From contig JAUXYI010000063.1 of assembly GCA_030694425.1 (NCBI GenBank), positions 57,150-121,149 of the forward strand: a DNA stretch of 64,000 nt, in the 5' to 3' direction. The stretch comes from Thermodesulfovibrionia bacterium. GTDB taxonomy: Bacteria > Nitrospirota > Thermodesulfovibrionia > UBA6902 > BMS3Bbin08. Positions 2,542-30,751 of this stretch are shown in pieces (position 1 is the first letter of the stretch; the number at the start of each line of letters is the position of its first letter). The notes below the pieces were generated by a model that saw nothing but the letters and a program-made list of their open reading frames with translations, made no database searches and was not told where the DNA came from. The translations under genes were made by a program, and so were the position numbers.

Positions 2542-3732
2542 ATGTGTGAAATGCATAGCAATAATAATGGTGGTGTCGGAATAAAAACAGTGCCTGTAAC
2601 AGAGGCAGTTGGCATGGTTATCGCCCATGATATTACTGAAATAATACCGGGGAAATTCAAGGGCAGGGCATTTAAAAAAGGACATATTATAAGAGAAGAG
2701 GATGTCTGTCATCTTCAGATGATCGGGAAGGAAAATCTTTTTATCCTTGAGATGAAAGAAGATGAGATGCACGAAAACGACGCAGCCTATGCCATTGCAA
2801 ATGCACTCGCCGGCAGCGGAGTAAAACTGGATGGGGAACCACGGGAAGGCAGGATAAATCTTGTTGCGGAAATAGACGGGTTATTAAAGGTTGACCGTAA
2901 AGCCCTTTTTAAATTCAATATGCTTGGCGAGGTTATGTGCGCTACGGTTCACAATAACTCAGTTGTTAAAAAAGGACAGGTTGTTGCTGGAACAAGGGCA
3001 ATCCCTCTTGTTGTAAAGAAATCTGTAATAGAGGAGGCAATGAGAATTGCAAGGGGGTCATCCCGACTATTCGGGACGAATCCTGGAACCCTCGAATCCT
3101 GTCATTCCACTGGTGTTATTGAAGTAAAAGAAATGAGAAAGCCAAAAACAGGAATAGTTATAACAGGCAACGAGGTCTATTACGGCAGGGTAAAAGATGC
3201 TTTTGGACCAGTAATAACAAAAAAAATAATGAGCATGGATGGGGAAGTCGTTGGTGTATATTTTGCGCCTGATGATGCTAAATATATTGAAGACAGGATT
3301 AAAGAATTGATAGCTGCCGGCGCTGACCTGATTATCACAACAGGAGGAATGTCTGTTGACCCAGATGATGTTACGAGATTTGCAATCAGGAATATCGGTG
3401 TTGATGAACTCTCATATGGAACCCCTGTGCTTCCAGGCGCAATGTTTCTTATTGCATACCTTGAAGACAGTAACAAGTTATCAGTAACGAGTAACGAGAT
3501 AAAACATGAAAAAGAAAACCCGTCACTTGTCACTCGTCACTCTGAACTTATCCCCATCATTGGAATACCTGCCTGCGGCATGTACAGCAATATAACTGTA
3601 TTTGATATTATACTGCCGAGGGTTCTTGCTGGTGAAAGAATTGGCAGGGAGGAATTGGCGGAACTTGGGCATGGCGGGTTATGTCTAAAATGTAGTGAAT
3701 GCCGCTACCCTGTTTGTCCTTTTGGAAAATAA
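2542..3732 (+). CDS. MoeA-like molybdopterin-binding protein (MoeA_N plus MoCF-biosynthesis domain) with Cys-rich C-terminus
   Basis: GIVITGNEV...ITTGGMSVDPDDVT is a MoCF_biosynth-type motif. Carries two in-frame repeat insertions (3055-3110 and 3470-3545). Confidence 0.55.
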   Translation: MCEMHSNNNGGVGIKTVPVTEAVGMVIAHDITEIIPGKFKGRAFKKGHIIREEDVCHLQMIGKENLFILEMKEDEMHENDAAYAIANALAGSGVKLDGEPREGRINLVAEIDGLLKVDRKALFKFNMLGEVMCATVHNNSVVKKGQVVAGTRAIPLVVKKSVIEEAMRIARGSSRLFGTNPGTLESCHSTGVIEVKEMRKPKTGIVITGNEVYYGRVKDAFGPVITKKIMSMDGEVVGVYFAPDDAKYIEDRIKELIAAGADLIITTGGMSVDPDDVTRFAIRNIGVDELSYGTPVLPGAMFLIAYLEDSNKLSVTSNEIKHEKENPSLVTRHSELIPIIGIPACGMYSNITVFDIILPRVLAGERIGREELAELGHGGLCLKCSECRYPVCPFGK

Positions 3733-3752
3733 CAAGCCGCTACTTTAGACTT

Positions 3753-5270
3753 TTAATTTTCTATAAGGCTTTTCCCTCTCATCTCCTCAGGTTTTTTTAT
3801 TTCCATCAATTCAAGTATTGTCGGAGCAACGTCTGCAAGTATGCCATTTTCACGCAACTTTATTCCGTCTTTTAGCAGGATGAAAGGCACAAGATTTGTT
3901 GTATGAGCTGTGTAAGGGCTATCGCCTTCCATCATTTCCTCACAATTTCCATGGTCAGCAGTTATTATAGCTATACCCCCAATGCCCTGGACCTTAGACA
4001 CAATCCTTTCAAGACACCTGTCAATTGCCTCGCATGCCTTTATTGCTGCGTCCATAATTCCAGTATGTCCTACCATATCAGGGTTGGCAAAATTTAATAA
4101 TATAAAATCATATCTGCATTCATCTATTTTTCTTGTAACTTCGTCTGTTACTTCATAGGCGCTCATCTCTGGTTTTAAATCATAAGTTGGGACATCCCTT
4201 GGAGACTTGATAAGGCGCCTGTCCTCTCCGTCAAATGATATTTCCTCTCCGCCATTAAAGAAATATGTAACATGTGCATATTTCTCTGTCTCAGCAATCC
4301 TGAGCTGTTTTAACCCTTTTTTGCTTATAATCTCACCAAGGATATTTGTTAATTTCACTGGCGGGAATGCGACAGGCAGGGTAAAAGTCTCATCATATAG
4401 GGTCATTGTTACATAAGTGCGCAGCCCTGGGATTTTTGCTCTCTCAAAAAAAGTAAAATTCTTATCTGTCAAAGCGGTTGTAAGTTCTCTTGCCCGGTCA
4501 GCCCTGAAATTGAAAAATATTACTGAATTGCCATCCTGTATTTTTCCGTTCGGCTCTTTTCCGCTGCATATAACAGTAGGTTTTATGAATTCATCTGTCT
4601 CGTTAATCTCGTAACTCTGCCTGACGGCCTCTCCTGCTGATTGTGCCTTTTCTCCGTCTCCAAGCACAATGGCATTATATGCCCGTTTTATCCTCTCCCA
4701 TCGCTTATCTCTATCCATTGCCCAGTATCTTCCTGTTACCGTGGCAATCTTTACTTGAGGTTTGTTTTTTATAAAAGATTCAAGCTGTGTTATAAAATTG
4801 ATGCCGGAAGCAGGCAGGGTATCTCTTCCATCCATAAATGCATGGACAAATACTTTTTTGACTCCGTTTGCTATTGCCATGTCAATCAAAGCATAGAGGT
4901 GATTTAGATGGCTGTGCACACCTCCGTCTGAAACAAGACCGAGCAGATGTAAGGCGCCTTCACCAGAAAAATTCATCACGTTAAGAAGGACTGAATTTTT
5001 GATAAAATCGCCGGTTTTTACGGCTTTATTTATCCTTGTATAGTCCTGATAAACAATCCTGCCGGCACCCAAATTAAGATGTCCTACTTCGGAGTTGCCC
5101 ATCTGACCTTCAGGCAATCCCACAGCCCCTCCTGATGCATTAAGGGCTGTATGCGGATATTTCTTTAAAAGACTTTTATAGAAAGGAATATTTGCCTTTT
5201 CCGTGGCATCAACAGCAGGATTGCTTCCTATTCCCCAGCCGTCAAGGACTATAAGGATAAGGGGTCTCAT
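3753..5270 (-). CDS. gpmI: 2,3-bisphosphoglycerate-independent phosphoglycerate mutase
   Basis: Full-length iPGM signature: MRPLILIVLDGWGIG..., metal-binding motifs. Confidence 0.9.
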   Translation of the reverse strand: MRPLILIVLDGWGIGSNPAVDATEKANIPFYKSLLKKYPHTALNASGGAVGLPEGQMGNSEVGHLNLGAGRIVYQDYTRINKAVKTGDFIKNSVLLNVMNFSGEGALHLLGLVSDGGVHSHLNHLYALIDMAIANGVKKVFVHAFMDGRDTLPASGINFITQLESFIKNKPQVKIATVTGRYWAMDRDKRWERIKRAYNAIVLGDGEKAQSAGEAVRQSYEINETDEFIKPTVICSGKEPNGKIQDGNSVIFFNFRADRARELTTALTDKNFTFFERAKIPGLRTYVTMTLYDETFTLPVAFPPVKLTNILGEIISKKGLKQLRIAETEKYAHVTYFFNGGEEISFDGEDRRLIKSPRDVPTYDLKPEMSAYEVTDEVTRKIDECRYDFILLNFANPDMVGHTGIMDAAIKACEAIDRCLERIVSKVQGIGGIAIITADHGNCEEMMEGDSPYTAHTTNLVPFILLKDGIKLRENGILADVAPTILELMEIKKPEEMRGKSLIEN

Positions 5271-5438
5271 TAAAAATTTTACCAGCTACTATTATGCTTT
5301 GTCAAAAAATGTTTGTCCGAGGGTTTCGTAGTTGATTGCATTGTATGAAAAGTATTAAACTTAAAATCTAACCTGATTTTGGTTAGCATGACATAAATAT
5401 TACGTATGGAGAGCATATTCCCACTTTAGGAGATTTTT

Positions 5439-6473: not shown

Positions 6474-6576
6474 ACGGAGAAGATAAGAAGATTATCTTTG
6501 TCAAAGGTGAAAAAGCGACCCCTATAAATTTTATAATACAAAGAATTTTGACAAAAACATCTTCACTTTCATGAAA

Positions 6577-6744: not shown

Positions 6745-6840
6745 ATATTTATTATAATAAAAGTTTAAAAGATATTCATTTGTAATTACAGCGTTTTCAG
6801 ATGGATTCCTTTGCTGTATAAATCATAAGCAGAAAAAATT

Positions 6841-8178: not shown

Positions 8179-8230
8179 AATAAAAGGCAAACGATGTTCA
8201 CTCTTAAAAATCGCATAGCAGTTCATCTAC

Positions 8231-8261
8231 TTGACTTTTTATGAAGCCGATAAGTTATAAT
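8231..8261 (+). promoter_or_regulatory. candidate sigma70 promoter (TTGACT ... TATAAT) driving riboswitch leader
   Basis: Hexamers read from sequence; 19-nt spacer. Confidence 0.4.
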
Positions 8262-8269
8262 CGTTCTGT

Positions 8270-8555
8270 CTTGTTCAGGTGCCCATTTTGGGCTTAAAGG
8301 GGAATCCCGTGAAAGACGGGAGCGGACCCGCCGCTGTAATCCTGATTCCGATTCATTCGGAATAAAAACTTCTATCAGTTAAAGCCACTTTTCCCGATGT
8401 ATCGGGGATGGGAAGGCAGATAGAAATCAGGAGAGCCAGAAGACCAACCTGGACAAAACCTCACATAAAAGCCTTCGTGGTATGAGGTTGTGAAGGTAAA
8501 AGTTATATAGCTTTTATCCCCAGCTTTCATAACGAGGGCTGGGGTTTTTATTTTT
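8270..8555 (+). promoter_or_regulatory. cobalamin (AdoCbl) riboswitch with terminator expression platform
   Basis: AAAGGGGAATCCCGTGAAAGACGGGAGCGGACCCGCCGCTGTAA core, GGGAAGGC, and B12 box AGCCAGAAGACC. Followed by a CCCCAGC...GCTGGGG hairpin plus T-run at 8517-8555. Confidence 0.7.
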
Positions 8556-9134
8556 ATGGCGCATTACATGCATATAAGAGACACTAAAAATATCAAAAAT
8601 GTCACCCTGAACTTGTTTCAGGGTCTAAAAAATGTAGCCGCAAACTTTAGTTTGCGTTTTATTTCGCAGGCTAAAGCCTGCGGCTACACAATTATTATAT
8701 TTTTGTTTCTGCTGTTCACTGTTCACTATTCACTGTTAACCGTCTCTTACGCTGAAACTCCTAACCGTATTATCTCCCTTGCCCGCAGTGTAACGGAGAT
8801 TCTTTTTGCCGCAGGGTTTGGAGATAGAGTCGTGGGCGTAACAAACTTCTGCGACTATCCTCCTGAAGCGAAGCAGAAACCAAAAATCGGGGGCATGTCA
8901 AATCCCTCGCTTGAAGCAGTAGTATCATTAAAACCGGACATCGTTGTATTGACCACTGATGGAAATCCAGAGGAGTTTGAACATAAGCTCCATTCAATGA
9001 AAATAAAAACTCATGTATTCGAAGCAGTTACGCTTCCTGAACTGGCGGATGGTATAAGAAAAATGGGCATTGCCCTTGATGCAAAGGAGAGTTTTAACTC
9101 CCTTGCATCAGGGCGCGGGGCTGTTGCTTCTTGA
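8556..9134 (+). pseudogene. btuF: btuF-like periplasmic B12-binding protein, 3'-truncated remnant
   Basis: Mature-protein homology (ETPNRIISLARSVTEILFAAGFGDRVVGV...) runs about 125 aa and then stops. The reading frame switches at about 9085 into an ABC ATPase C-terminus. Confidence 0.55.
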
Positions 9135-9408
9135 TGAGCCACTTGCAAATCTGGACATAAAATACCAGATAGAACTTCTAAAACTGCTTAAAGAATTGCA
9201 GGAGAAAAGAGAAATAGCGGTTTTGATGGCGCTTCATGATATAAATATTGCCTTGCAGTTTGAAAAGATAATACTAATCAAAGAAGGGAAAGTTCTCAGT
9301 ATTGGTAAGCCTGAAGCGGTGCTGACAGAAGATTTACTTAAGCAGGCATTTGATGTTGTGGTTGAAATTAAAAGACATGACTCAGGAGGAGCGTATATAA
9401 AGTATTAA
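9070..9408 (+). pseudogene. btuD: btuD/fecE-like ABC ATPase, C-terminal fragment only (post-signature, Walker B LLLLDEP, H-loop)
   Basis: Begins right after the ABC signature region. No Walker A and no permease gene. Consistent with a roughly 2 kb deletion fusing btuF to the end of btuD. Confidence 0.55.
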
Positions 9409-9515
9409 ATGCAAAATGTAAAATTAAAGAAAAGGCAGCAGGCACAGAGTTTTTGTCGTTCTTTGTGCCTTTGCCACTTTGTGCCTTTTGTAATTTTGAT
9501 TTTTGAGGTAACTTT

Positions 9516-10037
9516 GTGAGCAGCAAAATTATTTTCATTATAGGCGGGGCGCGAAGCGGAAAAAGTTCATTTGCCTTGAAGGAGGCTTCTAATATTTCAG
9601 GCAAAAAGGCATACATTGCAACTGCAGAGGCGCTTGACAGCGAAATGAAAGGCCGTATTGAGAAGCACAGAAAAGACAGAGGGAATAATTGGGACGTTTA
9701 TGAAGAACCATTAAAAATTTCTGATGTTCTGTCTGATATTAAGACGAAGTACGATGTTGTTGTTATTGATTGTCTGACGCTCTGGCTCTCAAATCTGATG
9801 CATAGTAATAAAGATATAAAAAGTGAAATTGAATCTTTTTGTAGTTCACTGTTCACTGTCCACTGTCCACTGTTCACTGTTTCCAACGAAGTAGGAATGG
9901 GCATTGTACCTGACAACAAACTGGCAAGAGAGTTCAGGGATCTGGCAGGGTTTTTGAACCAAAAAATTGCAGAAATAGCAGATGAAGTGTATGTAGTTAC
10001 AGCAGGGATACCTGTAAAAATTAAAAATGCAAAATGA
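9516..10037 (+). CDS. cobU: adenosylcobinamide kinase / adenosylcobinamide-phosphate guanylyltransferase
   Basis: P-loop GGARSGKS and the CobU family pattern. GTG start. In-frame (GTTCACT)n insertion at 9838-9880. Confidence 0.85.
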   Translation: MSSKIIFIIGGARSGKSSFALKEASNISGKKAYIATAEALDSEMKGRIEKHRKDRGNNWDVYEEPLKISDVLSDIKTKYDVVVIDCLTLWLSNLMHSNKDIKSEIESFCSSLFTVHCPLFTVSNEVGMGIVPDNKLAREFRDLAGFLNQKIAEIADEVYVVTAGIPVKIKNAK

Positions 10038-10044
10038 AAAATTC

Positions 10045-10190: not shown

Positions 10191-11276
10191 ATGGAACTTA
10201 GTCTGGTTTTAAGGGAGATACCGGCAATAAATGAAAAATTCTATGAGACTGCTCAAAAACGTCTTGACAATTTAACCAAACCGCAGGGAAGTTTGGGAAG
10301 GCTTGAGGAATTTGCAAGGAGAATAGTTGCAATTACTGAAAACCCTCTGCCTGTGCTTGATAAGAAAGCAATTTTTACTTTTGCAGGAGACCACGGAGTT
10401 GCCCAAGAAGGCGTGTCTGCTTTTCCAAAAGAAGTCACCAGGCAGATGGTTCTTAATTTTCTGAATGGAGGAGCAGGAATAAATGTCCTCGCAAGGCATG
10501 GAGGAGCAGATGTTGTAGTGGTGGATATAGGAGTTGATTTTGATTTTGTTAATCCCCCTTCACCCCCCTTTGGTAAAGGGGGGATGGGATTTGTTTCAAA
10601 AAAGGTTGTGATGGGGACAAAAAATATAAGAAAAGGTTCTGCTATGACAAGAAATGAGGCAGAAAGGTGTATAGATGTCGGAATAGAATTAGCAAATGAA
10701 TATGCAGAGAGAGGTTATAAAATTTTTGGCACAGGAGACATGGGTATTGCGAATACAACACCCTCAAGCGCCATAGCAGCAGTGTTTACCGGAAAGTTCG
10801 TTGAGAAGGTTACTGGAAGAGGAACAGGAATAAACGATGACTTATGGATGAACAAGGTTCAGGTTATCAAAGACGCAATATCTATAAATAAACCTGATGT
10901 CTCAGACCCTATTGATGTACTTTCAAAAGTAGGCGGTGCGGAGATAGGCGGTATTGCTGGGTTGATTATAGGTGCTGCAGCAAACAGGATTCCAGTAGTT
11001 ATAGACGGTTTTATATCAACCGCAGGAGCGCTTATAGCGTATGCAATTGAACCAAAGACAAGAGACTATATGTTTGCAGCACATAATTCTCAGGAAATAG
11101 GACACAAGGCAATGCTTGATTACATAGGTCTAAAACCCATACTTGACCTTGAGTTAAGACTCGGCGAAGGGACAGGCGCTGCACTTGCGATGCTGATTAT
11201 TGAGGCAGGGGTAAAGATTTATAAGGAGATGGCAACTTTTGGAGAGGCAGGGGTAGCGACAAAAGATCATAAATAA
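10191..11276 (+). CDS. cobT: nicotinate-nucleotide--dimethylbenzimidazole phosphoribosyltransferase
   Basis: Full-length CobT pattern. In-frame C/G hairpin insertion at 10550-10595 ([12 protein letters not shown]). Confidence 0.9.
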
Positions 11277-11277
11277 G

Positions 11278-11300
11278 AACACAGAGCACAGAACACAGAC
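11278..11300. repeat. (CAGAACA)-type heptamer array, left inverted arm of IVS-protein cassette
   Basis: GAACACAGAGCACAGAACACAGAC. Its reverse complement is present at 11661-11693. Confidence 0.6.
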
Positions 11301-11313: not shown

Positions 11314-11661
11314 ATGCATAATTTTAGAAAACTTAAAATTTATCAAAAGGCAATTAATTTTGCTGTTGAGATATATAGACTTACAAAATCTTTTCCAAAA
11401 GACGAACTTTTTGGATTGACTAATCAACTTAGAAGAGCAGTAACATCTATCTCTTTAAATATTGCGGAGGGGAGTAGGAATAAATCAAGCAAAGAATTTA
11501 GACGATATTTAGAAATCTCTTTAAGATCAACTTATGAAGTAATGACATGTCTTGAGATTGCATTACGATTAAATTATTGCAAAGGGGAGGATTTTAAAAG
11601 ACTGATTGCAGAATCAGATGAAATAGCTGCAATGATAGTAGGTTTTTCTAAACAGCTTTAG
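11314..11661 (+). CDS. four-helix-bundle protein (23S rRNA intervening-sequence protein family)
   Basis: Sequence pattern ...KSFPKDELFGLTNQLRRAVTSISLNIAEG... is typical of the IVS four-helix-bundle family. Flanked by inverted heptamer arrays. Confidence 0.75.
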   Translation: MHNFRKLKIYQKAINFAVEIYRLTKSFPKDELFGLTNQLRRAVTSISLNIAEGSRNKSSKEFRRYLEISLRSTYEVMTCLEIALRLNYCKGEDFKRLIAESDEIAAMIVGFSKQL

Positions 11662-11693
11662 TCTGCATTCTGTATTCTGTGCTCTGTGTTCTG
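11661..11693. repeat. (TGTTCTG)-type heptamer array, right inverted arm of IVS-protein cassette
   Basis: GTCTGCATTCTGTATTCTGTGCTCTGTGTTCTG is the reverse complement of the 11278 arm. Confidence 0.6.
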
Positions 11694-12475
11694 ATGAGAA
11701 AGATTTTACTCGCATTCCAGTTTTTGACAATTATTCCTGTAAAGGAGATGAAAGATGTCTCTGAGAAAGAGATAGGGGGCGCTTCTGCTTTCTTTCCTTT
11801 AATAGGCTGGATTCAGGGGGCTTTATTTGTGGTATCAGCGGTTTTATTCTTAAAGATTTTCCCTCCAGAATTGGTAAATGGACTTCTTATCCTTGTAATT
11901 GTTACAACCAGCGGCGGTCTTCACCTTGACGGGCTTGCAGATACCTTTGATGCAGTTGCCTCAAAAGGAGATAGGGAAAAGAAGCTTTCTGTTATGAAAG
12001 ACAGCACAATCGGCCCTGTAGGTGTAATTGCGATAGTTCTGGCATTGCTTCTTAAATTCCTTGCCTTGAATAGTCTTTTTCACTATTCACTATTCACTAT
12101 TCACTATTTCTGATGCCTGTTTTTTCGCGATGGGTAATGGTTACAGCAATTTTTCACGGTAAATCAGCAAGACAGGACGGCATTGGAAAGATATTTATTG
12201 AAAATACAAAATTAAAGGAATTAGTGATAGCGACCCTGTTAGTTATTGGCTGCTGGTTATTAGTTGTTAGCTTCTTATTGTCTTCACTATTCACTATTCA
12301 CTATTCACTGTTTTTAGTGTCTATACCTGTACTTTACATCTTCAGTCTCGTATCAGTTTGGTTCTGCAATAAAAAATTTGGCGGTATGACAGGAGATACA
12401 TTCGGGGCGGTTTCCGAAATTTCAGAGATATTATTTTTGATAATGGCGGTAATATGCTCACAAGACTTTATTTAA
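11679..12475 (+). pseudogene. cobS: adenosylcobinamide-GDP ribazoletransferase (cobalamin synthase), split by a frameshift inside a (CACTATT)x4 tract at 12081-12108
   Basis: ORFs 11679..12113 and 12113..12475 together cover the full CobS homology (GLHLDGLADT...MKDS.IG then SRW...GGMTGD). The frame changes exactly within the heptamer array. A 5-copy or 2-copy array would restore the frame. Confidence 0.7.
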
Positions 12476-19771: not shown

Positions 19772-19829
19772 TAAATAAAAAGTTCAAAAATGGGAAGTAA
19801 GAAGCAGAAATAAAAAAATCAAGGGAATA

Positions 19830-19980
19830 AAAACGAGGAAAGGGGTGAGAATCCCCTGCTGTCCCGCAGCCGTAAAGGGAACGAAAACCCAACAGAAGTC
19901 ACTGTGCCGAATCTTCGACATGGGAAGACGGGTAAGTAGGCAGCCCTGAGCCGGAAGACCGTTTGTTCCCGCAACCTCGA
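19830..19980 (+). promoter_or_regulatory. cobalamin riboswitch (variant)
   Basis: GTGAGAATCC, CCCGCAGCCGTAAAGGGAA, GTCACTGTGCC, GGGAAGACGG, GCCGGAAGACCG. Upstream of the outer-membrane protein / cbiMNQO block. Confidence 0.55.
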
Positions 19981-19996
19981 CGGAAGGAGAAAAAAA

Positions 19997-21547: not shown

Positions 21548-21978
21548 AAAAACAGATTGGTTTGGCGGGATTTTTCAGACGCATTTTCGTCATTCCGCAC
21601 TTGATGCGGAATCCAGTCTTTTTTCTGGATTCCCGCTTTCGCGGGAATGACGCCTATCGGAACAGGATACACTATGGAATAACCATTTTAATTTTATCTG
21701 TTCTCGTCACTTGTCACTTCTCACTTGTCACTGCCGCCGAGTGGGGTGGTGTTGACGAATCAGTTGTGGAGAAATATGCAAAGGAGCACGGCAGGGAGGC
21801 AAGAGAGCCCTTGATAAACACTGATCAGGGAGACTTGCTTCTATTTGTGTTTTTGCTCGCAGGCGCCATCGGAGGATTTGCAGCGGGGTATTACTGGAGG
21901 GTGCTGACAGAGAACAGAGCAGAAAGCAGTAAAAACAGAACAAACACTTACGAGCCTTTAGCTCAAAAAAAGGAGTAG
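21544..21978 (+). CDS. cbiN: cobalt transport protein CbiN
   Basis: ATGA overlap with cbiM. C-terminal TDQGDLLLFVFLLAGAIGGFAAGYYW. A palindromic repeat is inserted in frame near the N-terminus. Confidence 0.7.
   Translation: MKKQIGLAGFFRRIFVIPHLMRNPVFFLDSRFRGNDAYRNRIHYGITILILSVLVTCHFSLVTAAEWGGVDESVVEKYAKEHGREAREPLINTDQGDLLLFVFLLAGAIGGFAAGYYWRVLTENRAESSKNRTNTYEPLAQKKE
21588..21650. repeat. GTCATTCCGC...GCGGGAATGAC palindromic element (RFRGND / VIPAKAGIQ-type), in frame in cbiN
   Basis: Read directly. Antisense spurious ORF at 21484..21672. Confidence 0.5.
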
Positions 21979-22055
21979 AAATATAATCCCCTTTCCCCCC
22001 TTTTCTAAAAGGGGGGAAAGGGGGGACTTGAAAACCGTTTTCGGAGCAAAGACAA

Positions 22056-22823
22056 ATGGAAATTTTTTCTGAGCATTTTAACAAAGACAACTTTCTCTCA
22101 AAAATCGACGTGAAGGTGAAGTTGCTCGTTGTACTCTCACTTTTGGTGATGGTGCTGAGTTGCACAAAAATCTTTTTCCCTATACTCATTGCTATGGGCT
22201 GTTTTTTGCTTTGCCTGAAAATGAAAATAGCGCCGCGTGTGCTGCTTCTGAGAATGGCACAGCCTTTATTTTTTGCGTTAGTGATTTTATTGCTGAAGCT
22301 CTTTTTTTCCGGCAAAGACACTATGTTTTCCATCTCACTTCCGACTTCTGACTTCTCACTTCTCACTTTGACAGGTCACAGAGACGGACTCATTGAAGGG
22401 TTAAAGATCACAAGCAGAATACTCGGCGGGGTATCGCTTGTAATGGCATTTGGATTTGCCACACCTTTTGCCGAAATCCTTGCAGGACTTTCATGGCTCA
22501 GGCTGCCGAAGCAGTTCATTGAAATAACAATGTTTGCCTACAGATATATTTTCATGTTTCTTGAAGATGCGCACACTATCTACAATGCGCAGAAAAATCG
22601 TCTTGGTTATTCGGGAATGAGAAAAGGCATGAAGTCCTTCGGCACACTTGCAGGTTCGCTCGTGATAAGGGGATTTGACCAGAGCCAGAAGACATCCGAG
22701 GCAATGATCCAACGCGGATACACAGGGGATATGCCTATGATAGATGGAAGACCATTGAGATTCGGTGAAGTCTTTTTTGCTGCGATATTCGTGTTTTTTG
22801 CAGGTGCAGTATGGATGATTTAA
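22056..22823 (+). CDS. cbiQ: cobalt ECF transporter T component
   Basis: CbiQ pattern. In-frame (CTTCTCA)n at 22340-22375. Confidence 0.8.
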   Translation: MEIFSEHFNKDNFLSKIDVKVKLLVVLSLLVMVLSCTKIFFPILIAMGCFLLCLKMKIAPRVLLLRMAQPLFFALVILLLKLFFSGKDTMFSISLPTSDFSLLTLTGHRDGLIEGLKITSRILGGVSLVMAFGFATPFAEILAGLSWLRLPKQFIEITMFAYRYIFMFLEDAHTIYNAQKNRLGYSGMRKGMKSFGTLAGSLVIRGFDQSQKTSEAMIQRGYTGDMPMIDGRPLRFGEVFFAAIFVFFAGAVWMI

Positions 22824-23788
22824 AAAGAACACAGAACACAGAACACAGACTAAAGACTAAAGATAACCCTCCCATCCCCTCCTTATTTAAGGGGGGGCAA
22901 AGGGGGGTTACCGCAAAGGGAAGTGAGGGGGGATTTAGGAATGCTTTGTCGGTTGAGAAACTCTCATACAAGTACCCTGACGGGACGTCTGCGTTGACTG
23001 ATATTACCTTTAATGTAAGGAAAGGTAAGTTTATCGGACTGCTTGGAGCAAACGGCTCCGGGAAAACAACGCTTCTTCGCGCGATGGATGGACTTATGAA
23101 GAACTTTGAAGGCGGTGTTTATCTGGAAGGGATTGATATAAGAAAGCTCACGCCGAAGCAGATTTACAAAAAGATCGGGCTTGTGTTTCAAAACCCCGAT
23201 GACCAGCTCTTTGCGCCCACTCTCTTTGAGGATGTTGCCTTCGGTCCTTTGAATATGGGTTTTGACGCAGGAGAAGTTAAGAAAAGGGTATTAAATGCCT
23301 TAAATGAAGTTGAGCTTACAGGTCTTGAAAAAAAATCCGTTCACAATCTGAGCTTTGGTCAGAGGAAGCGCGCGTGCATCGCAGGACTTCTTGCGATGGG
23401 ACATGAAATGCTTTTGCTTGATGAACCGACAGCGGGGCTTGACCCGATGGGCGAATACAGGATGATGAAGCTGCTTCAGAAATTGAACAAAGAAAACGGC
23501 GTGACAATTGTCATGGCGACTCACAGCGTGGACCTTGTGCCTCTTTTTCTTGATGAGCTTTACATCCTGAGTAAAGGCAGAATCACAAGAGGCGGCACAC
23601 CGGAGGAGGTGTTTAATGCGCCTGAAGATATGTCAAATGTTAAACTCAGGCTTCCCCACATCGCAGAGCTGATTTATAAACTGAAGCATGAAGATAAACT
23701 GGACTTTGAACGTATTCCCCTCACTATTGGTGAGGCAAGAAGGGAGATCCTGAAAATATATACATACAGAAAAGGTGATGGAAGATGA
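22811..23788 (+). CDS. cbiO: cobalt ECF transporter ATPase
   Basis: Walker A GANGSGKTT, signature LSFGQRKR, Walker B LLLDEP. N-terminal 40 aa derive from a heptamer array plus a C/G hairpin. Confidence 0.85.
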   Translation: MDDLKRTQNTEHRLKTKDNPPIPSLFKGGQRGVTAKGSEGGFRNALSVEKLSYKYPDGTSALTDITFNVRKGKFIGLLGANGSGKTTLLRAMDGLMKNFEGGVYLEGIDIRKLTPKQIYKKIGLVFQNPDDQLFAPTLFEDVAFGPLNMGFDAGEVKKRVLNALNEVELTGLEKKSVHNLSFGQRKRACIAGLLAMGHEMLLLDEPTAGLDPMGEYRMMKLLQKLNKENGVTIVMATHSVDLVPLFLDELYILSKGRITRGGTPEEVFNAPEDMSNVKLRLPHIAELIYKLKHEDKLDFERIPLTIGEARREILKIYTYRKGDGR

Positions 23789-24586: not shown

Positions 24587-25858
24587 GTGAGTATGACTAA
24601 AATTCATGTCATAGGCATTGGCTATAAACCACTTGATAAAGGTGCAAGGGAAGTTATCTTGAATTCATCAGTCATCCTTGCGTCCAACAGGCTTTTTGAA
24701 GTTTTTCAGGGATATAAGGAATATGAAAAAGTGAAAGATAAAGTAAAAGTGATAAACAATGTAGATGAGACAATAAAATTCATTCACTCGTCACTCGTTA
24801 CTCGTCACTCGTCACTCATCACACTTCTTGCCTCCGGAGACCCGCTTTTTTTTGGTATCGGTAGAAGGGCTGTGAGAGAATTTGGAAAAGACATCGTGAA
24901 AATACTGCCTGATCTATCATCTATTCAGATGGCATTTGCAAAGATAAAAGAACCGTGGGATGATGCATTCCTCATGAGCCTTCATGGCGGCCCTGACCCG
25001 ACAAAAAGAAGGAAGCTGAAATATGAACTAAGTGACATTTCTGAACTACTCGCTAAACATAATAAAATTGCTATCCTGACTGACAAAGAAAATAACCCTC
25101 AGAAGATTGCACAGGTTCTTAACTTGTCACTTGTCACTCGTCACTCGTCACTTATTATGTTTGTCTGTGAACGGCTCGGTTATCCTGATGAGAAAATAAC
25201 AGAAGGAACACCTGAGGAAATTACAAAGATAGAGTTTTCAGACCCAAATGTTGTGATAATTCAGAGCACAGAACACAGAACACTTAACACAGACTTAAAA
25301 TTTGGATTAACAGAAAGCGAAATTCTTCATTCTAAGGGACTCATAACAAAGGACGAGGTCAGAGCTGTAACAATTCAAAAATTAAGGCTCCCGCAAAAGG
25401 GCATATTCTGGGATATTGGTGCTGGCTCTGGATCAGTATCAATAGAAGTAGCAAGGCTTTATCCTGAATTAAAAGTTTTTGCCATCGAAAGAGACGAAGA
25501 ACAGGTTAATCATATCAAGGAAAACATGATTAGACGCAACACATCTAATATTGAAATAATAAAAGGTGATGCCCCTGAAACCCTGGCAAATCTTCCACAT
25601 CCGGACAGAGTATTTATAGGAGGAAGCGGTGGAAGGATTAAAGAGATAATAGAATTTGTGAGCAATAAGATATCGTCTGGAGTCATCGTAATAAATGCCA
25701 CTACAATAGAGACACTGAATGGGGCAGTTCAACATCTTGAGAACAATGCATTTAATGTGGGAGTCTCTGAAATTTCTGTTTCCAGAGCAAAAACCGTGGG
25801 TGGCAAAAGACACATGAGTGCTTTAAATCCTGTATTTATTATAACAGGAGAAAGATAG
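24587..25858 (+). CDS. cbiET: precorrin-6Y C5,15-methyltransferase (decarboxylating), CbiE-CbiT fusion
   Basis: N-terminal methylase domain plus C-terminal SAM methyltransferase (DIGAGSGS). Three in-frame insertions. Confidence 0.85.
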   Translation: MSMTKIHVIGIGYKPLDKGAREVILNSSVILASNRLFEVFQGYKEYEKVKDKVKVINNVDETIKFIHSSLVTRHSSLITLLASGDPLFFGIGRRAVREFGKDIVKILPDLSSIQMAFAKIKEPWDDAFLMSLHGGPDPTKRRKLKYELSDISELLAKHNKIAILTDKENNPQKIAQVLNLSLVTRHSSLIMFVCERLGYPDEKITEGTPEEITKIEFSDPNVVIIQSTEHRTLNTDLKFGLTESEILHSKGLITKDEVRAVTIQKLRLPQKGIFWDIGAGSGSVSIEVARLYPELKVFAIERDEEQVNHIKENMIRRNTSNIEIIKGDAPETLANLPHPDRVFIGGSGGRIKEIIEFVSNKISSGVIVINATTIETLNGAVQHLENNAFNVGVSEISVSRAKTVGGKRHMSALNPVFIITGER

Positions 25859-25860
25859 AA

Positions 25861-26685
25861 ATGACAGGCAAACTGTATGTGGTGGGCGTAGGTCCCGGAG
25901 ACCCCGAACTGCTGACACTAAAGGCAGTGCGGATTCTCAGGGAAGTTAAGTGCATCTGTGTTCCAAAGAGCAGGGAAGAAGGAAGCAGTCTTGCATTATC
26001 CATTGTTAAAAAAGCTATTAACATTGATGGCAAAGAGATCATAGAGGCATATTTTCCAATGAGAAAGACAAAAGACAGTAACAAGTCGCAAGTAACGAGT
26101 AACGAGTTAAAGAATAAAAAATATCCTGAAGACTTGTCACTCGTCACTGAGCCTGCCCTGAGCTTGTCGAAGGGTCACTCGTCACTGCCTTTGGATTGCG
26201 AACTGGATACGAAATGGCAGGAAACAATAGATGCCGTTTATAGCAGACTGGATAAAGGAATTGATACGGCTTTTATCACTATCGGAGATCCTACAATATA
26301 CAGCACCTTTTTTTATCTCCATGATGGACTCCTTGATCTCAATCCAGAATTAAATATAGAAATAATTCCAGGAGTATCTTCCATAAATGCCTCTGCCTCA
26401 AGGGCAAAAATATCCCTCAGTCTTGCTGATGAAAGGATTGCCATACTTCCAGCGAATTACACGACTGACTTAAAGAATGCATTAGAAAGGTTTGATACCG
26501 TTGTGCTTATGAAGGTTCATAAAGTGTTCAGAAATATATTAAATGTCTTAAATGAAACAGAACTCCTGAATAAAGCAGTCTATATTTCAAAGGTGGGTAT
26601 GGAAGATGAAAGGATAATCAAAAATATCAGAGATGTAAAAGAAGAAGACCTCAATTACTTTTCAATGGTGATAATAAGGAAATGA
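25861..26685 (+). CDS. cbiL: precorrin-2 C20-methyltransferase
   Basis: LYVVGVGPGDPELLTLKA...GDPTIYSTF. Insertion at 26080-26200. Confidence 0.8.
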   Translation: MTGKLYVVGVGPGDPELLTLKAVRILREVKCICVPKSREEGSSLALSIVKKAINIDGKEIIEAYFPMRKTKDSNKSQVTSNELKNKKYPEDLSLVTEPALSLSKGHSSLPLDCELDTKWQETIDAVYSRLDKGIDTAFITIGDPTIYSTFFYLHDGLLDLNPELNIEIIPGVSSINASASRAKISLSLADERIAILPANYTTDLKNALERFDTVVLMKVHKVFRNILNVLNETELLNKAVYISKVGMEDERIIKNIRDVKEEDLNYFSMVIIRK

Positions 26686-27437: not shown

Positions 27438-29301
27438 AGGCAACAAGACAGAAGTCAGAAGTCAGCCTTCAGCCTTATTTTACATAACAGACAAGGGACT
27501 TATGCTTGCCAAAAAGCTCAAAGAACTTTTCCCTAATTCACAGATGGTGAAATTTAAATCAGAGGCTGTTTCTGAGGTCTGGAGCGAGTGCAAAAATCTA
27601 ATATTCATCATGGCAGCAGGAATTGTTGTCAGGACTATCGCCCCCTTAATAAAAGGCAAAAGGACAGATCCTGCTGTTGTTGTGCTGGACGAGAAAGGGG
27701 AATATGCAATCAGCCTTTTAGGTGGACATCTTGGAGGTGCAAATAAGATTGCAAAGGAGATTGCTGATTTCTTAGGAGGCAGAGCGGTAATAACAACAGC
27801 ATCTGATGTAAATAATCTGCCAGCCATAGATTTATGGGCAAGAGAAAATAATTTAGTGGTAGAAAATTGGGATTTGCTGCCGAAAATTGGTACGCTGCTT
27901 TTAAACAAGGGTTTTTTGAAAGTCTATGCGGATATAGGTATTAAATTGACTGACAAATTACAAAAAACAGACAATCCTGAAACTGCTGACATCCTTATTA
28001 CAAACAAAAACAACCTGTTTGCTCATACACCCATTCATCTTTATTTAAGACCCAAAAATCTTATTATTGGTATTGGCTGTAACAGCGGAACATCAGCAGA
28101 TGAAATAGAAGACGCTGTTAAAAGTATACTGGCGGAAAACAATCTATCATTTCTATCGGTTTACTCCATAGCGACCATTGATAAAAAAAGCAGCGAGCCT
28201 GGTCTGATTGCATTCACTGAAAAGTATGGTTTTAAGGTTAAAACGTTCACATCCGACGAACTGAATAATGTCAAAGGTGTAGTGAAATCAGAAGCTGCAT
28301 TCAAAGCAACTGGAGCCAAAGCAGTAGCAGAGCCAGCAGCATTACTCGCATCAGGAGCAAAGAAACTGCTTGTGCCAAAACAAAGGATAGGAAATGTCAC
28401 GATAGCAATAGCACTCAAAGGCAGTAACGAGTTACAAGTAACAAGTAACAAGTTAAAAAATAAAGGCTCGTCACTCGTCACTCGTCACTCGTCACTTTAC
28501 ATCGTTGGCACTGGCCCGGGAAGCATTGAACATATTACGCCTTATGCCCAAAATGCAATAAGAAACTCCGATGTTATAGTTGGATACGGCACATATCTTG
28601 AACTAATACAGGAGTTAATTAAGGATAAAGAAGTCGTATCCACAGGCATGACGCAGGAGATAGACAGATGTAAAAGAGCAGTGGAACTGGCAATGTCAGG
28701 AAAAACCGTTTCTATCATAAGTGGTGGAGACCCTGGTATCTATGCCATGGCAGGATTGGTGTTTGAAATATTGAAAAACAGTAACGAGTTACAAGTAACA
28801 AGTAACAAGTCAGTAGAGAGTCGGGAGTCAAAAAACTCGTCACTCGTCACTCGTCACTCGTCACTTATTGATGTTGAGGTTATTCCCGGTATTTCTGCCT
28901 TAAATGCCTGTGCAGCAAGGCTCGGTGCGCCACTCATGCATGATTTTGCATGCATAAGTCTTTCTAACAGGCTTACGTCTTGGGATTTGATAGAAAAAAG
29001 ACTTGAGGCCGCTACAACGGCTGATTTTGTGATTGTGCTTTATAACCCAAAGAGCATGGGCAGGCAGGGGCATATCAATAAGGCAAGGGATATCATCTTG
29101 AGATATAGAACTCCTGAAACACCTGTGGGAATAGTAAAGTCTGCAATGAGGGAGAACGAAAAAATAATCATTACAAATCTTAAAGACATGCTTGACCACG
29201 ATATTGATATGCAGAGCACGGTAATTATCGGGAATTCGCAAACATTTTTATGGGAAGGGTGGATGATAACACCGAGGGGATATGCAAACAAAAAACAGTG
29301 A
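27421..29301 (+). CDS. cbiGH: CbiG fused in frame to precorrin-3B C17-methyltransferase CbiH
   Basis: CbiG homology to about aa 340. A repeat insertion at 28425-28500 replaces the cbiH start. Then LYIVGTGPG...GGDPGIY. Confidence 0.8.
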   Translation: MNTENKGNKTEVRSQPSALFYITDKGLMLAKKLKELFPNSQMVKFKSEAVSEVWSECKNLIFIMAAGIVVRTIAPLIKGKRTDPAVVVLDEKGEYAISLLGGHLGGANKIAKEIADFLGGRAVITTASDVNNLPAIDLWARENNLVVENWDLLPKIGTLLLNKGFLKVYADIGIKLTDKLQKTDNPETADILITNKNNLFAHTPIHLYLRPKNLIIGIGCNSGTSADEIEDAVKSILAENNLSFLSVYSIATIDKKSSEPGLIAFTEKYGFKVKTFTSDELNNVKGVVKSEAAFKATGAKAVAEPAALLASGAKKLLVPKQRIGNVTIAIALKGSNELQVTSNKLKNKGSSLVTRHSSLYIVGTGPGSIEHITPYAQNAIRNSDVIVGYGTYLELIQELIKDKEVVSTGMTQEIDRCKRAVELAMSGKTVSIISGGDPGIYAMAGLVFEILKNSNELQVTSNKSVESRESKNSSLVTRHSSLIDVEVIPGISALNACAARLGAPLMHDFACISLSNRLTSWDLIEKRLEAATTADFVIVLYNPKSMGRQGHINKARDIILRYRTPETPVGIVKSAMRENEKIIITNLKDMLDHDIDMQSTVIIGNSQTFLWEGWMITPRGYANKKQ

Positions 29302-30751
29302 CGAGTTACGAGTAACGAGTAACAAGTCAGTAAAGAGTCGGGAGTCAAAAAACTCGTCACTCGTCACTCGTCACTCGTCACTTAAAAATGATGTTGCCTT
29401 TTTGTGGGATGAGTCTCTTCTATGGGGATTAATGGCATATAAGGCATTGAAGTCACGTAACCTGCCTTTTAATATTATTCGTTCTGCTGATATTAAAAAC
29501 AGGCAACTCAAAAATTACAAAATGCTATTTGTCCCTGGTGGATGGGCATCAAATAAGCTAAAGGCTCTCGGTAAAAAGGGCATCACTGAGATAAAAAGAT
29601 TTGTCAGAGGCGGAGGCAATTACCTCGGTCTTTGCGGCGGTGCAGGGCTTGCAACTCAGGAGAGTGTAGGACTCTTAAATGTCAGGAGAAGACCTACAAA
29701 GAACCGCGTCCCGAGCTTCAGCGGGAAGATATATCTAAATATAAGTGAGCATCCTATCTGGAATGGTTTGGTTGGAGGAAACAGCAATGAAAATAGTGCA
29801 AATACGGTAATTCAAAATAACTCATCACTCATCACTCCCCGGCCTCGTCCCGAAGCGTCGGGACGGGGCGGGCATTACTCGTCACTGCCTTTTCATGCCT
29901 GGTGGCCATCGCAATTTTTAGTAGAGGATAAGGGTATAAAGGTACTTGCTATATTTGGAGGCGCCTTACCGGATTCTTTCAGCTCTGACCTAAATATCGG
30001 GGATGTAGAGGCAGATGGCAGTTGGGCTGAACTTGAAAAAATCTATAAGATAAATCTTAATCCTGAAAAACTTATAAACGAGCCTGCTGTTCTGGAAGGC
30101 AGTTATGGACTTGGTAAAGTAATTTTATCACTTATCCATTTTGATACCACTCAGGACAGGAATGGTGCTGAGGTTTTAAAAAATCTATGGGAATATCTCG
30201 CAGGACAGAAGACAGAAGTTAGGAAGATAAGAAATTGGGAAGATAAGAGCCTCTCAACTTCTCAACTTATAGGCTCCAAAACAAACCTGTCACTGCTCAA
30301 GGAACTTGAAATGTTAGTTGATGAGTTGATTTCCCTCGGCGAACGGAATTTCCTCTGGTTCTGGCGAAACCCAATGCTTCTTCAGTGGCGGAGGGGAGTA
30401 AGGGGGCTTGAATACTGCACGCTGTATGTGATGATAAAAGAGATTACCGCAATACTTAAAAATGGACAAGTAGCGAAAGCCAGGGGACAAAGAAACATTG
30501 AATTATTAATTGGAGATAGCTTGGGGAGAATCAGGAGATTGCTTATACCATTTATAGAAAAAACCAAACGCTTACTAATCATGGAAAGGTATGCCTTACA
30601 GAATGGACATATCACCTATGAGAGATGTGATAGTCCAGAGATTCAGAAATTAAGGTGTGAACTTTTCTCCACCTCAAAAAGCCATGGAGGATTGTTCAAA
30701 AAACTTATTGATGAAGTGGACAAAGTTTTGTATAGTTTGTTGATTAACTAA
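29282..30751 (+). CDS. class-I glutamine amidotransferase-like (BPL_N-type) domain protein
   Basis: LFVPGGWASN...GGGNYLGLCGGAGLA. N-terminus sits in a repeat element. Second insertion at 29815-29890. Confidence 0.35.
   Translation: MQTKNSDELRVTSNKSVKSRESKNSSLVTRHSSLKNDVAFLWDESLLWGLMAYKALKSRNLPFNIIRSADIKNRQLKNYKMLFVPGGWASNKLKALGKKGITEIKRFVRGGGNYLGLCGGAGLATQESVGLLNVRRRPTKNRVPSFSGKIYLNISEHPIWNGLVGGNSNENSANTVIQNNSSLITPRPRPEASGRGGHYSSLPFHAWWPSQFLVEDKGIKVLAIFGGALPDSFSSDLNIGDVEADGSWAELEKIYKINLNPEKLINEPAVLEGSYGLGKVILSLIHFDTTQDRNGAEVLKNLWEYLAGQKTEVRKIRNWEDKSLSTSQLIGSKTNLSLLKELEMLVDELISLGERNFLWFWRNPMLLQWRRGVRGLEYCTLYVMIKEITAILKNGQVAKARGQRNIELLIGDSLGRIRRLLIPFIEKTKRLLIMERYALQNGHITYERCDSPEIQKLRCELFSTSKSHGGLFKKLIDEVDKVLYSLLIN

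Follow-up and report, generated by a model that had tools for sequence, protein, structure and literature searches.

Heptanucleotide arrays and small palindromes inside the cobalamin genes of a Thermodesulfovibrionia bacterium: probably tiny repeats filtered by selection

The cobalamin (cob/cbi) genes in a 64-kb stretch of a metagenome-assembled genome (MAG) of Thermodesulfovibrionia (Nitrospirota), to which we refer as the window, are interspersed with short repeat elements at a density of about 2 per kb across a 22-kb region, and about 40 of these elements lie inside the open reading frames (ORFs) of roughly 20 genes. In our opinion the probable explanation is that cob/cbi operons have been colonised by tiny non-coding repeats, which are tolerated in genes, are translated with them and have been filtered by selection; those with heptamer-arm hairpins would be miniatures of elements of the intervening-sequence (IVS) type. 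An earlier note on this DNA had counted about 35 such insertions; all the repeat sites that it quoted are present as described, and a few elements beyond the main group lie in a MoeA-like gene and in formate dehydrogenase (Fdh) genes.

Host genes were assigned by Pfam. Between 8.5 and 30.8 kb they comprise cobU, cobT, an S23p/IVSp gene, a split cobS, cobC, cobQ, cbiB and cobD, together with cbiA, cbiX-C, an outer-membrane protein gene, cbiMNQO, five tetrapyrrole methylases, a CbiG-CbiH fusion and an unassigned ORF (orf489). The MoeA-like gene (MoCF_biosynth) is at 2542 and the formate-dehydrogenase-like genes are at 44.3-48.6 kb. Coordinates are those of the window unless another locus is named, and the located elements and riboswitches are on the plus strand, save for one intergenic palindrome to which no strand is attached.

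There are two structural classes, tandem heptanucleotide arrays and short GC-rich palindromes. The heptamers are of the TNNTCAC or 'TCACT' type and of the ACAGAAC type (family b), with unit sequences that include ACTCGTC, AACACAG and ACTGTTC; they stand solo or as the two inverted arms of a hairpin (c-type hairpins among them). The palindromes are a C6-7/G6-7 double hairpin (family a), the minihairpin TCCCGA-N4-TCGGGA (family e) and, in a relative, a 21-nt CCTGCC..GGCAGG sequence. As the earlier note had observed, several families occur side by side; moreover, the GC-rich palindromes are nested within arrays and within one another.

The amount of these repeats is far beyond chance. Under a uniform criterion (Tandem Repeats Finder and a scan of our own) we find 48 arrays of period 7 between 8.5 and 30.8 kb, against about 3 in shuffled sequences (maximum 10), while periods 5, 6, 10 and 11 are at chance level in the same interval, so that the excess is specific to period 7. 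Tandem Repeats Finder itself returns dozens of 7-nt arrays from 8.7 to 30.3 kb. Per 4-kb bin there are 6-10 period-7 arrays within the cob/cbi region and 0-3 outside it, with the exception of the bin from 60 kb, whose 7 arrays are mainly AT-rich and intergenic. Array length varies from 17 to 44 nt and copy number from 2.4 to 5.6 units, which is not the 21-nt block that had been described. Family a is represented by 11 copies in the window, 10 of them within ORFs. Exact minihairpins (TCCCGA-N4/5-TCGGGA) number 7, where about 0.02 would be expected by arithmetic from the pattern and the window length; four are within ORFs and three are intergenic. Outside coding sequence there are, among others, one family-a copy, the arms of a cassette around the IVSp gene, the three minihairpins and a hairpin in a riboswitch. 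Elements at the 5' ends of the cobD, cbiN, cbiM and cbiO ORFs may be untranslated.

We compared the region with the syntenic cob operons of six relatives (L001-L006, from ENA, JGI and NCBI assemblies), of which L001 is 89% identical to the window at the nucleotide level and L002-L006 are about 53-88% identical at the amino-acid level (L004 is a Thermodesulfovibrio); the proteins of 13 genes were aligned, and DNA was aligned with L001 and L002. The segments are variable and cluster at sites shared across lineages, and a single site can hold different element families in different lineages. At one site in CobC, for example, the window has QNTEHRTQNIDNPPIPPLNKGGQRGVT, L001 has VQN..LNNVEPLNN, L006 has both kinds and L003 carries a third family. 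The family-a palindrome of CobT (10551-10593), whose site varies among relatives, corresponds to an 11-residue gap against PDB 6b5f, and the c-type hairpin of CbiL (26077-26190, residues 74-113), which has a palindrome read as EPALSLSKG nested in its right arm, to a 40-residue gap against PDB 2qbu. The (ACTCGTC)4.4 right arm in CobD (16611-16641) is likewise a gap in the alignment with PDB 1lc5, equal to an insertion of about 10 amino acids, and a 30-nt stretch there is missing in L002.

The DNA alignments reveal indels against both L001 and L002, so that presence and absence do differ between sister genomes, a comparison that the earlier note had proposed. L001 has in CobQ an extra 81-nt insert (minihairpin plus palindrome) relative to the window. 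It also carries the 21-nt palindrome CCTGCCTGTCCGGTAGGCAGG twice, nested in opposite orientations in two family-a copies at an identical position, AAAGGGG^GGTGAGGGGGGATT; neither is present in the window. One of the two sits in the CobQ composite, which in the window consists of a b-type array and a family-a palindrome (14556-14633, QNTGLRAQSTENPPSPPFNKGELGGF). Nested palindromes are further found in CbiB, in CbiL and at the 5' end of cobD, where a b-type hairpin, (CAGAAYW)n ... (TCTGNNT)n, that holds C/G palindromes within it (16025-16183) is absent from L002. Also absent there are 105 nt of the composite near the N-terminus of CbiO (22824-22940; b arrays, a family-a palindrome and a half palindrome), a 16-nt minihairpin that precedes an (ACTTGTC)n array in the signal-peptide core of CbiM (20801-20860, LLLVTCYLSLVT), and a 70-nt palindromic element that contains VIPHLMRNPVFFLDSRFRGND and accompanies a (GTCACTT)n array in the N-terminal transmembrane region of CbiN (21553-21732). 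Elsewhere it is the array that varies: the (GTTCACT)5.4 array of CobU (9844-9881, SLFTVHCPLFTV) has variant arrays at its site in relatives, and the place of the solo (CTCGTCA)5.6 array in CbiE/T (24784-24827, HSSLVTRHSSLIT) is taken by a different heptamer family in the relative L104.

Presence and absence between relatives, together with copies in unrelated genes, indicate that the segments are inserted DNA and not ancestral sequence. The opposite reading, that they are ancestral low-complexity protein sequence or else products of assembly, is in our opinion hardly credible. Its first half has in its favour that some short heptamer segments recur in every orthologue examined and that one of them is a native segment of the enzyme. 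It is contradicted by near-identical DNA copies in unrelated genes, by the gaps against PDB homologues, by differences in presence and absence between relatives with 89% DNA identity, and by a 7-nt periodicity of the DNA which selection on protein could not reach. As to assembly, an independent Logan assembly (L128, SRR13727538) contains an identical MoeA-like protein including the hairpin insert, and the same classes at the same sites recur in ENA, JGI and NCBI assemblies, so that an artefact is ruled out. Orthologue alignments thus speak against conserved ancestral sequence for the palindromes and hairpins, for which this reading is refuted, and in favour of it for some arrays, CobD being an example; it survives only in the sense that some arrays are old residents. 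In the same way, the claim that all sites are insertions inside ORFs stands for the palindromes and hairpins, by their gaps in PDB homologues or relatives, and falls for the native CobD array and for some elements that are intergenic or at 5' ends. The Logan contig stops at about 8.6 kb of the window, where the dense repeats start; apparently such repeats break short-read assemblies.

The old residents deserve attention of their own, a point which the earlier note overlooked: among the short heptamer segments, many are not recent insertions but long-standing residents that form part of the protein structure. The (AGTTACG)5 array of CobD (16522-16556) aligns to the native segment CEIRRWSLRE of Salmonella CobD and is not an insertion, and a heptamer array is found at this site in all seven orthologues, each with a unit of its own (AGTTACG, AAGTTAC, GAGTTAT/A, AGTCAGA). 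An array present in every orthologue with lineage-specific units points to long-lived coding microsatellites that evolve in concert, and the protein sequence at such resident arrays appears to follow the DNA repeat. Array sites in CbiB and CbiQ are likewise conserved: the (ACTTCTC)4.6 array of CbiB (15248-15281, LLTSHFSLL) is found in degenerate form in most of 17 aligned orthologues, the (GTTCACT)4.3 array of the same protein (15703-15734) is old and structurally integrated, and the site of the (ACTTCTC)-type array of CbiQ (22337-22368, LPTSDFSLLTL) is kept in relatives.

An AlphaFold2 model of CbiB (120 sequences, mean pLDDT 88.8) separates the two kinds of segment. The large composite at 15031-15176 (a b array, a nested GC-rich palindrome and a family-a palindrome) gives an insert of about 45 residues which is unstructured in the model (residues 53-88; pLDDT <50 at 57-74), while LLTSHFSL, in a helix-turn-helix, and SLFTVHCSL are at helix ends with high pLDDT. 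The Pro/Gly-rich composite lies in a predicted disordered loop, and the short heptamer segments are integrated into the structure. Arrays of the TCACT type encode hydrophobic peptides rich in L, F, V, T, S and H, and they turn up repeatedly in signal peptides or membrane segments (BtuF, CbiM, CbiN, CobS, CbiB and CbiQ), as if they could supply or replace hydrophobic segments. Sites of this kind are at 8712, 12077, 12281, 15248, 15703, 20828, 21703 and 22337. The first is a (CTGTTCA)n array (8712-8743) that encodes LLFTVHYSLLTV in the signal-peptide region of a truncated BtuF remnant, and another is the (TTCACTA)3.9 array by which the C-terminal half of CobS (12281-12312) reads SSLFTIHYSL within a membrane segment.

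How, then, do so many elements come to be in frame? The earlier note had considered a frame-aware insertion mechanism, and indeed the frame is kept by all intact host genes, 7 of the 10 intragenic family-a copies share one frame, and all seven c-type hairpins are in a compatible register. Nevertheless we regard insertion by a frame-aware or codon-phased mechanism as extremely improbable. All 12 indels of at least 6 nt inside ORF cores between the window and L002 (9, 6, 30, 6, 30, 78, 51, 6, 15, 21, 9 and 105 nt) are multiples of 3. Indels that are not multiples of 3 do exist against L002 (19, 128, 89, 16, 70 and 7 nt), and they are found only at 5' ends or between genes; copies of the elements stand between genes and in a riboswitch. 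A heptamer array passes through all three frames over 21 nt, so that a stop-free unit suffices and the frame gives little information for arrays. The unused frames of the family-a palindromes contain stop codons: the TAAC..TTAC subtype of the palindrome has a single stop-free frame, and the AAT..ATT subtype has two, which are used 3:1. In the Fdh region, family-a palindromes are found in FdhA together with (CTCGTCA)-type units (44561-44641, NPPLPPFSKGGRGGINSSLVTHNSSLF), as a variant in a different frame in the iron-sulphur subunit (47284-47345), and in the FNR-like oxidoreductase (47836-47888, IPIPPHPPLSKGGRGGF). The translation NPPxPP..KGGxGG, which had been thought invariable, is thus that of 7 out of 10 intragenic copies, those of FdhB, the FNR-like protein and CobD having other frames or being variants, with the FdhB variant read in the third frame.

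The c-type hairpins are equally instructive. The left-arm unit AGTAACG contains TAA, and wherever a T(G/A)A of the left arm would come into frame, TTA stands in its place or else the array ends; restoring the pairing G would create an in-frame TGA in 5 of 7 hairpins, and the compensating TTA units are at differing unit positions from one left arm to another. For the TCACT type the orientation within genes is fixed because the opposite strand contains TGA. Stops in unused frames, the TTA units and the split cobS gene, taken together, speak for selection after random events; this is enough to account for the frame pattern, and machinery that senses the frame is not required.

The cobS gene is the exception to the claim that every element keeps the frame of its host. 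Its (TTCACTA)4.3 array (12077-12108) has exactly one 7-nt unit fewer than that of L001, and the resulting frameshift splits the gene into two ORFs, 11679-12113 and 12113-12475. The split gene is either a true pseudogene, or a population variant, or a switchable state. The last possibility could be generalised: the heptamer arrays would be contingency loci, and slippage by 7 nt would switch cob genes in phase variation. This would agree with the frameshifted cobS being one unit away from L001, with a unit length that is not divisible by 3, and with the perfect sequence of arrays, which implies ongoing slippage. Yet there is one frameshift among about 45 arrays, arrays of 2.4-5.6 units are short and should slip at a low rate, the remaining array differences among the window, L001 and L002 are in frame, and it is not obvious what would be gained by switching single steps of a 25-gene pathway. 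We therefore consider contingency loci a poor candidate, though not quite as poor as a frame-aware mechanism.

At the RNA level, the preference of the (GTAACGA)/(TCGTCAC) hairpins for the antisense strand had been correctly foreseen. The c-type hairpin at 28420-28500, placed exactly at the junction of the CbiG and CbiH domains, folds with -40.8 kcal/mol as antisense and -18.8 as sense RNA, and the one at 28777-28869, which is within the CbiH methylase domain and breaks its Pfam match in two, with -44.4 and -20.3 kcal/mol; all sense-strand mismatches of the c-type hairpins are A·C. Other members of this type include a copy at the end of CbiGH and the start of orf489 (29294-29386), near-identical to that at 28777, a copy in CbiA (17661-17747, QVTSNELKNKKYSEDSSLVTCHLSL), near-identical to that of CbiL, and a heptamer-arm hairpin (family c) in the MoeA-like ORF (3466-3549), translated as DSNKLSVTSNEIKHEKENPSLVTRHSEL. 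Yet another heptamer-arm hairpin, joined by a minihairpin, has entered a terminal loop of the third cobalamin riboswitch of the window (32637-32729 within 32513-32788), a loop of 89 nt compared with 12 in the Rfam model. The Rfam scan of the window returned three cobalamin riboswitches only, at 8260, 19794 and 32513, and the repeat elements themselves match no Rfam family.

Between cobT and cobS is a cassette of larger size. An S23p/IVSp gene (11314-11661; PF05635, Pfam 1.4e-38; PDB 2gsc, 1e-17), encoding an Avd-like four-helix bundle, forms the loop between two inverted family-b arrays. The left one, (GAACACA)n at 11276-11299, begins at the CobT stop codon, and its inverted complement of the TCTGTNT/TGTGTTC type at 11660-11693 ends at the start of CobS; in the RNA fold the arms pair over 23 bp. 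The same cassette is found between cbiN and cbiQ in L003 (12571-12995) and L104 (about 4335-4760), so that it occupies different operon junctions in different relatives.

Such structures invite the thought that the elements act in cis as functional RNA or DNA signals of riboswitch-controlled operons and are kept by selection; they might possibly be sites of processing by RNase III or other enzymes, or might stabilise mRNA, form antisense-RNA structures or make translation pause (PPxPP). The enrichment is indeed specific to the cob operon and conserved in relatives, array sites are kept over deep divergence, the antisense fold is about twice as stable (z = -10), and a 23-bp stem such as that of the intergenic IVSp cassette is typical for RNase III substrates. 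On the other hand, the content of a site differs freely among close relatives and empty sites occur, one site may be used by many unrelated families, the same families are present in Fdh, in the MoeA-like gene and in AroA of a relative, and there is no visible rule of position with respect to gene starts and ends. Taking these points together, we judge a role as cis-acting signals to be unlikely, even if it is the most serious of the competitors named so far.

The cassette is better understood in the light of what was found beyond the window. In a sample of taxa chosen on heptamers alone (at least 120 loci with (CTYRTCA)3), 3 of the 120 loci listed have an IVSp ORF within inverted heptamer arrays, and they come from other phyla: Ignavibacteriaceae (L011), Campylobacteraceae (L030) and Pyrinomonadaceae (L054). 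No IVSp ORF bracketed by inverted heptamer arrays was present in 755 kb of control loci. Conversely, all four loci on viral contigs that were found by IVSp similarity alone (L249-L252) carry inverted heptamer arrays; one of them shows this weakly and two of the four have the same sequence, which leaves three distinct ones. A query with a single IVSp protein had no match among the viral contigs, and it was the alignment-based query that gave these four. In total, 9 IVSp loci beyond the window were retrieved, 8 of them distinct.

In Coxiella the IVS of 23S rRNA is 428 nt long, contains an S23p ORF and has an RNase III stem (PMC4990558), and this stem contains tandem GACAGAT heptamers of variable copy number next to the ORF (PMC4990558). 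Inverted heptamer arms are thus an architecture shared by the 23S IVS, the IVSp cassette and our hairpins, and on account of it we read the hairpins as ORF-less elements of the IVS type; that the heptamer-arm hairpins are ORF-less miniatures is, by this analogy, the most likely interpretation.

One may go further and suppose that heptamer-arm hairpins constitute a widespread and so far unrecognised class of mobile elements, of which the full form would have IVSp in its loop and the 23S IVS would be a special case. IVSp, perhaps together with a reverse transcriptase as for Avd, would then act in trans to spread the ORF-less miniatures and solo arms, which would come to rest wherever a loop of rRNA, of a riboswitch or of a protein permits it; in Thermodesulfovibrionia they would by now be long-lived, concertedly evolving coding microsatellites concentrated in B12 operons. 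We offer this wider scheme as a tentative one, with clearly less confidence than the colonisation of cob/cbi operons as such. Avd acts with reverse transcriptase in diversity-generating retroelements.

As regards distribution, (CTYRTCA)n arrays and the hairpins made of them occur in many phyla among the matches listed, about 45% of which are from Pyrinomonadaceae or other Acidobacteriota, where the arrays are mainly intergenic. MAGs of Pyrinomonadaceae, Blastocatellia and other Acidobacteriota contain many intergenic hairpins that are almost perfect and follow the pattern (AGTGAYR)n-loop-(YRTCACT)n (loci L008, L013, L021, L024, L025, L027, L031, L038 and L039 among others), an element class of which we know no description. 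Searches by other features were less productive. A concatenated c-hairpin peptide had no protein match and a 38-residue peptide of family b plus a had one match in 1.8 billion proteins, both queries probably being too short and of low complexity. In a metagenome scan with AGATAACCCCCCNNNCCC the palindrome was carried by 0 of the 120 loci listed, which were taken as chance matches and used as a control set only.

The concentration in cob genes is pronounced. In the relatives there are 60 period-7 arrays per 45.5 kb of cob genes and 1 per 17 kb of neighbouring genes; PurH is 512-521 amino acids long in 120 relatives and CbiB 320-439. Besides the genes already named, the window includes gpmI, PBP1A, purE/D/H, parAB and genes for an M48 protease, a histidine kinase, DpnII restriction-modification and toxin-antitoxin, and no elements were seen in gpmI, PBP1A, PurE/D/H, ParAB, M48, toxin-antitoxin or restriction-modification genes. 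The statement that housekeeping genes are free of insertions accordingly holds for gpmI, PBP1A, purEDH, parAB and M48 in the window, and for PurH in the 120 relatives. AroA (EPSP synthase) of a 'Nitrospira sp.' MAG (L106, 3-779) has an in-frame heptamer segment, SPLITHHSSL, from which it follows that housekeeping genes are not immune in that relative. Weak selection alone was rejected as the cause of the cob bias, since non-essential neighbours are clean too, namely the toxin-antitoxin, restriction-modification and histidine kinase genes and, in relatives, TonB receptor and HEAT-repeat genes. Candidate causes are nesting in which the rich get richer, a low level of expression imposed by the riboswitches, or a role for the elements in the operon RNA.

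The course of events under colonisation and filtering would start with elements gained and lost between close relatives and with arrays changing by whole 7-nt units, two steps that can be read off the alignments. Slippage or conversion would homogenise the arrays, a site persisting for long while its unit turns over, and new elements would land preferentially in existing ones, which would produce the shared hot spots. Purifying selection would purge insertions that shift the frame, bear stops or are structurally intolerable; this outcome is visible and purging is its presumed cause. The survivors would be those in frame, stop-free and at loops, domain junctions, termini and membrane or signal segments.

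Several points weigh against this account. No target-site duplication was seen at the boundaries of the 21-, 81-, 105- and 30-nt indels in the L001 and L002 alignments, and no transposase, RAYT or reverse transcriptase is among the Pfam-scanned ORFs of the 64-kb window. Mobility of the elements is deduced from their presence and absence, and translation of the inserts from the constraint on their sequence to be in frame and free of stops. The link between IVSp and the miniatures is one of shared architecture, and not of sequence identity between c-type hairpins and a complete cassette. That hot spots are shared could be due to a small number of permissive sites instead of targeting, and simple tolerance leaves the element-free non-essential neighbours unaccounted for.

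In kind the phenomenon is known: it works like Rickettsia palindromic elements (RPE) and the cyanobacterial STRR and SDR repeats, and its architecture is shared with the S23p IVS. What is unusual is the density, the persistence of sites over deep divergence and the connection with IVS. Heptamer arrays (STRR) and small dispersed repeats (SDR) are reported from cyanobacteria (Mazel 1990; Elhai 2008). The SDR are palindromic elements of about 21-27 nt that insert into arrays and into each other. TAACTGA heptamer repeats occur in Beggiatoaceae, Cyanobacteria and Bacteroidetes (PMC4679880). With these systems the present one has in common tandem heptamers above chance, tiny nested polymorphic palindromes, and an orientation within ORFs that is restricted by stop codons. 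The differences are that the known cases are overwhelmingly intergenic whereas nearly all of ours are in coding sequence, that our arms pair into hairpins and have a link with S23p/IVSp cassettes, and that the phylum and the unit sequences (STRR1-3, SDR1-8) are not the same. Repetitive extragenic palindromes (REP) are extragenic by definition. REP/REPIN-RAYT systems and miniature inverted-repeat transposable elements (MITEs) are, like our elements, short abundant hairpins without a mobility gene of their own; here, however, they are mostly intragenic, and no RAYT (IS200/IS605-like) is among the scanned ORFs. MITEs derive from an insertion sequence and have terminal inverted repeats with target-site duplication; in the present elements there are inverted arms, and no target-site duplication is visible at the four indels named above.

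The resemblance to RPE that the earlier note had pointed out is justified, in that hairpin-forming repeats lie in frame inside genes. RPE, according to the account in the review PMC3184786 of the work of Ogata et al. 2000, are in-frame palindromic repeats in permissive protein parts of functional genes; they are single-family units of about 105-146 nt in an intracellular alpha-proteobacterium. RPE and other repeats fused to the inside of ORFs (BRE, RUP/SPRITE) share with our case in-frame palindromes in intact ORFs that are variably present between relatives. Here the elements are of 16-120 nt, at least six families co-occur and nest, many are built of heptamers, the host is one of Nitrospirota and the density is far higher; it is by size, build and host that they are set apart from RPE. 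The same review (PMC3184786) terms about 9 BRE-containing genes per genome 'striking'. Seven nucleotides is the favoured unit of long simple sequence repeats (SSR) in many prokaryotes (Mrazek 2007, as cited in PMC4679880). Long SSR and contingency loci share with our arrays this unit length and, in the one case of cobS, a frame shift through slippage by one unit, but our arrays are short and scattered, different genes have arrays of one family in common, arrays pair up as hairpins, and for the most part their frame is fixed.

The 23S rRNA IVS of Coxiella and Leptospira (PMC4990558) have in common with the cassette a length of about 420 nt, a PF05635 ORF, an inverted-repeat stem with tandem heptamers of variable copy number (here (GAACACA)n) and a location in a permissive loop of the host molecule. 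Unlike them, the cassette is not in helix 25 or 45 of 23S rRNA, but between cobT and cobS of an mRNA operon; the ORF-less hairpins are within coding sequence and a riboswitch, and excision by RNase III would destroy the mRNA in the case of intragenic copies.

The remaining elements may be described briefly. In CobC, a composite of an (ACAGAAC)4.7 array and a family-a palindrome (12588-12669, RQNTEHRTQNIDNPPIPPLNKGGQRGVT) is accompanied by 8-nt tandem repeats of family f (12943-13025: AGGAGTCA, and GAACCCTC in 3.9 copies). The host sequence CTGTTCTG beside the CobC element was entertained as a 'right arm', but it is present at 1 of 5 composites only and is probably a coincidence. Minihairpins lie in the MoeA-like (MoCF_biosynth) ORF (3061-3076, by pattern scan and Pfam), in CobQ (14008-14023) and, with an (ACTCATC)n array, in orf489 (29817-29863). 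CbiA contains an (ACAGAAC)4.7 array (18514-18546, DRAQNTEHRTQT), CbiX-CbiC a composite of b arrays, a family-a palindrome and a half palindrome (19358-19468), CbiE/T an (ACTTGTC/ACTCGTC) array (25120-25152, LSLVTRHSSLI) and, at the junction of the CbiE and CbiT domains, a (CAGAACA)n array (25262-25293, QSTEHRTLNT), and the N-terminus of CbiG an (AAGTCAG)n array (27443-27476). The intergenic, unstranded family-a palindrome is between cbiN and cbiQ (21990-22040).

Some observations concern the surroundings. Riboswitch 1 (8260-8466; RF00174, 89.8 bits) forms the leader of the cob operon. Behind it, the N-terminal half of BtuF runs straight into the C-terminal part of an ABC ATPase (8556-9408), the remnant of a B12 importer; a btuC-like gene and the missing importer halves (about 1.9 kb in L006) are deleted from the window. 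Riboswitch 2 (19794-19981, Rfam) is upstream of the outer-membrane protein gene and cbiMNQO. Together with this Phenol_MetA_deg gene (19760-20782), which has no repeat elements, it is missing in L002, and the protein is 88.5% identical to its L005 counterpart, most other cob proteins being 55-83% identical; this suggests a cassette that may move separately. Downstream of riboswitch 3 there is a toxin-antitoxin island (32.9-38 kb) in place of any B12-related gene, and for this reason the riboswitch looks orphaned. Between the cob and fdh regions, near a ParB-like gene, is a defence and toxin-antitoxin island without repeat elements, which includes a DpnII-type restriction-modification pair and a nucleotidyltransferase/HEPN pair (39506-41382 and 42604-43592).

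AT-rich heptamer arrays (AAAATGC, AAAATCA and similar) occupy intergenic positions near gene starts, at 9407-9428, 10015-10043, 20781-20798, 47587-47726, 56837-56955, 60474-60585 and 61911-62004, and two of them adjoin minihairpins (56918, 61961). They bring to mind the TAACTGA repeats that precede start codons in Beggiatoaceae (PMC4679880).

If our explanation is right, these operons would be among the densest known cases of selfish repeats in functional genes, stable over deep divergence, and they would offer a natural experiment on where about 20 enzymes and transporters can accommodate 7-40 additional residues. The practical side is that such inserts fragment assemblies and inflate or split the gene calls of MAGs, as seen in the end of the Logan contig and in the split cobS. 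Coding heptamer microsatellites with a fixed site and a unit that turns over would represent protein change driven by DNA repeats. Finally, one architecture would join the long-unexplained S23p/IVS elements of rRNA with the equally unexplained heptamer arrays of bacteria, and it would provide a testable route to the function of PF05635 outside diversity-generating retroelements.

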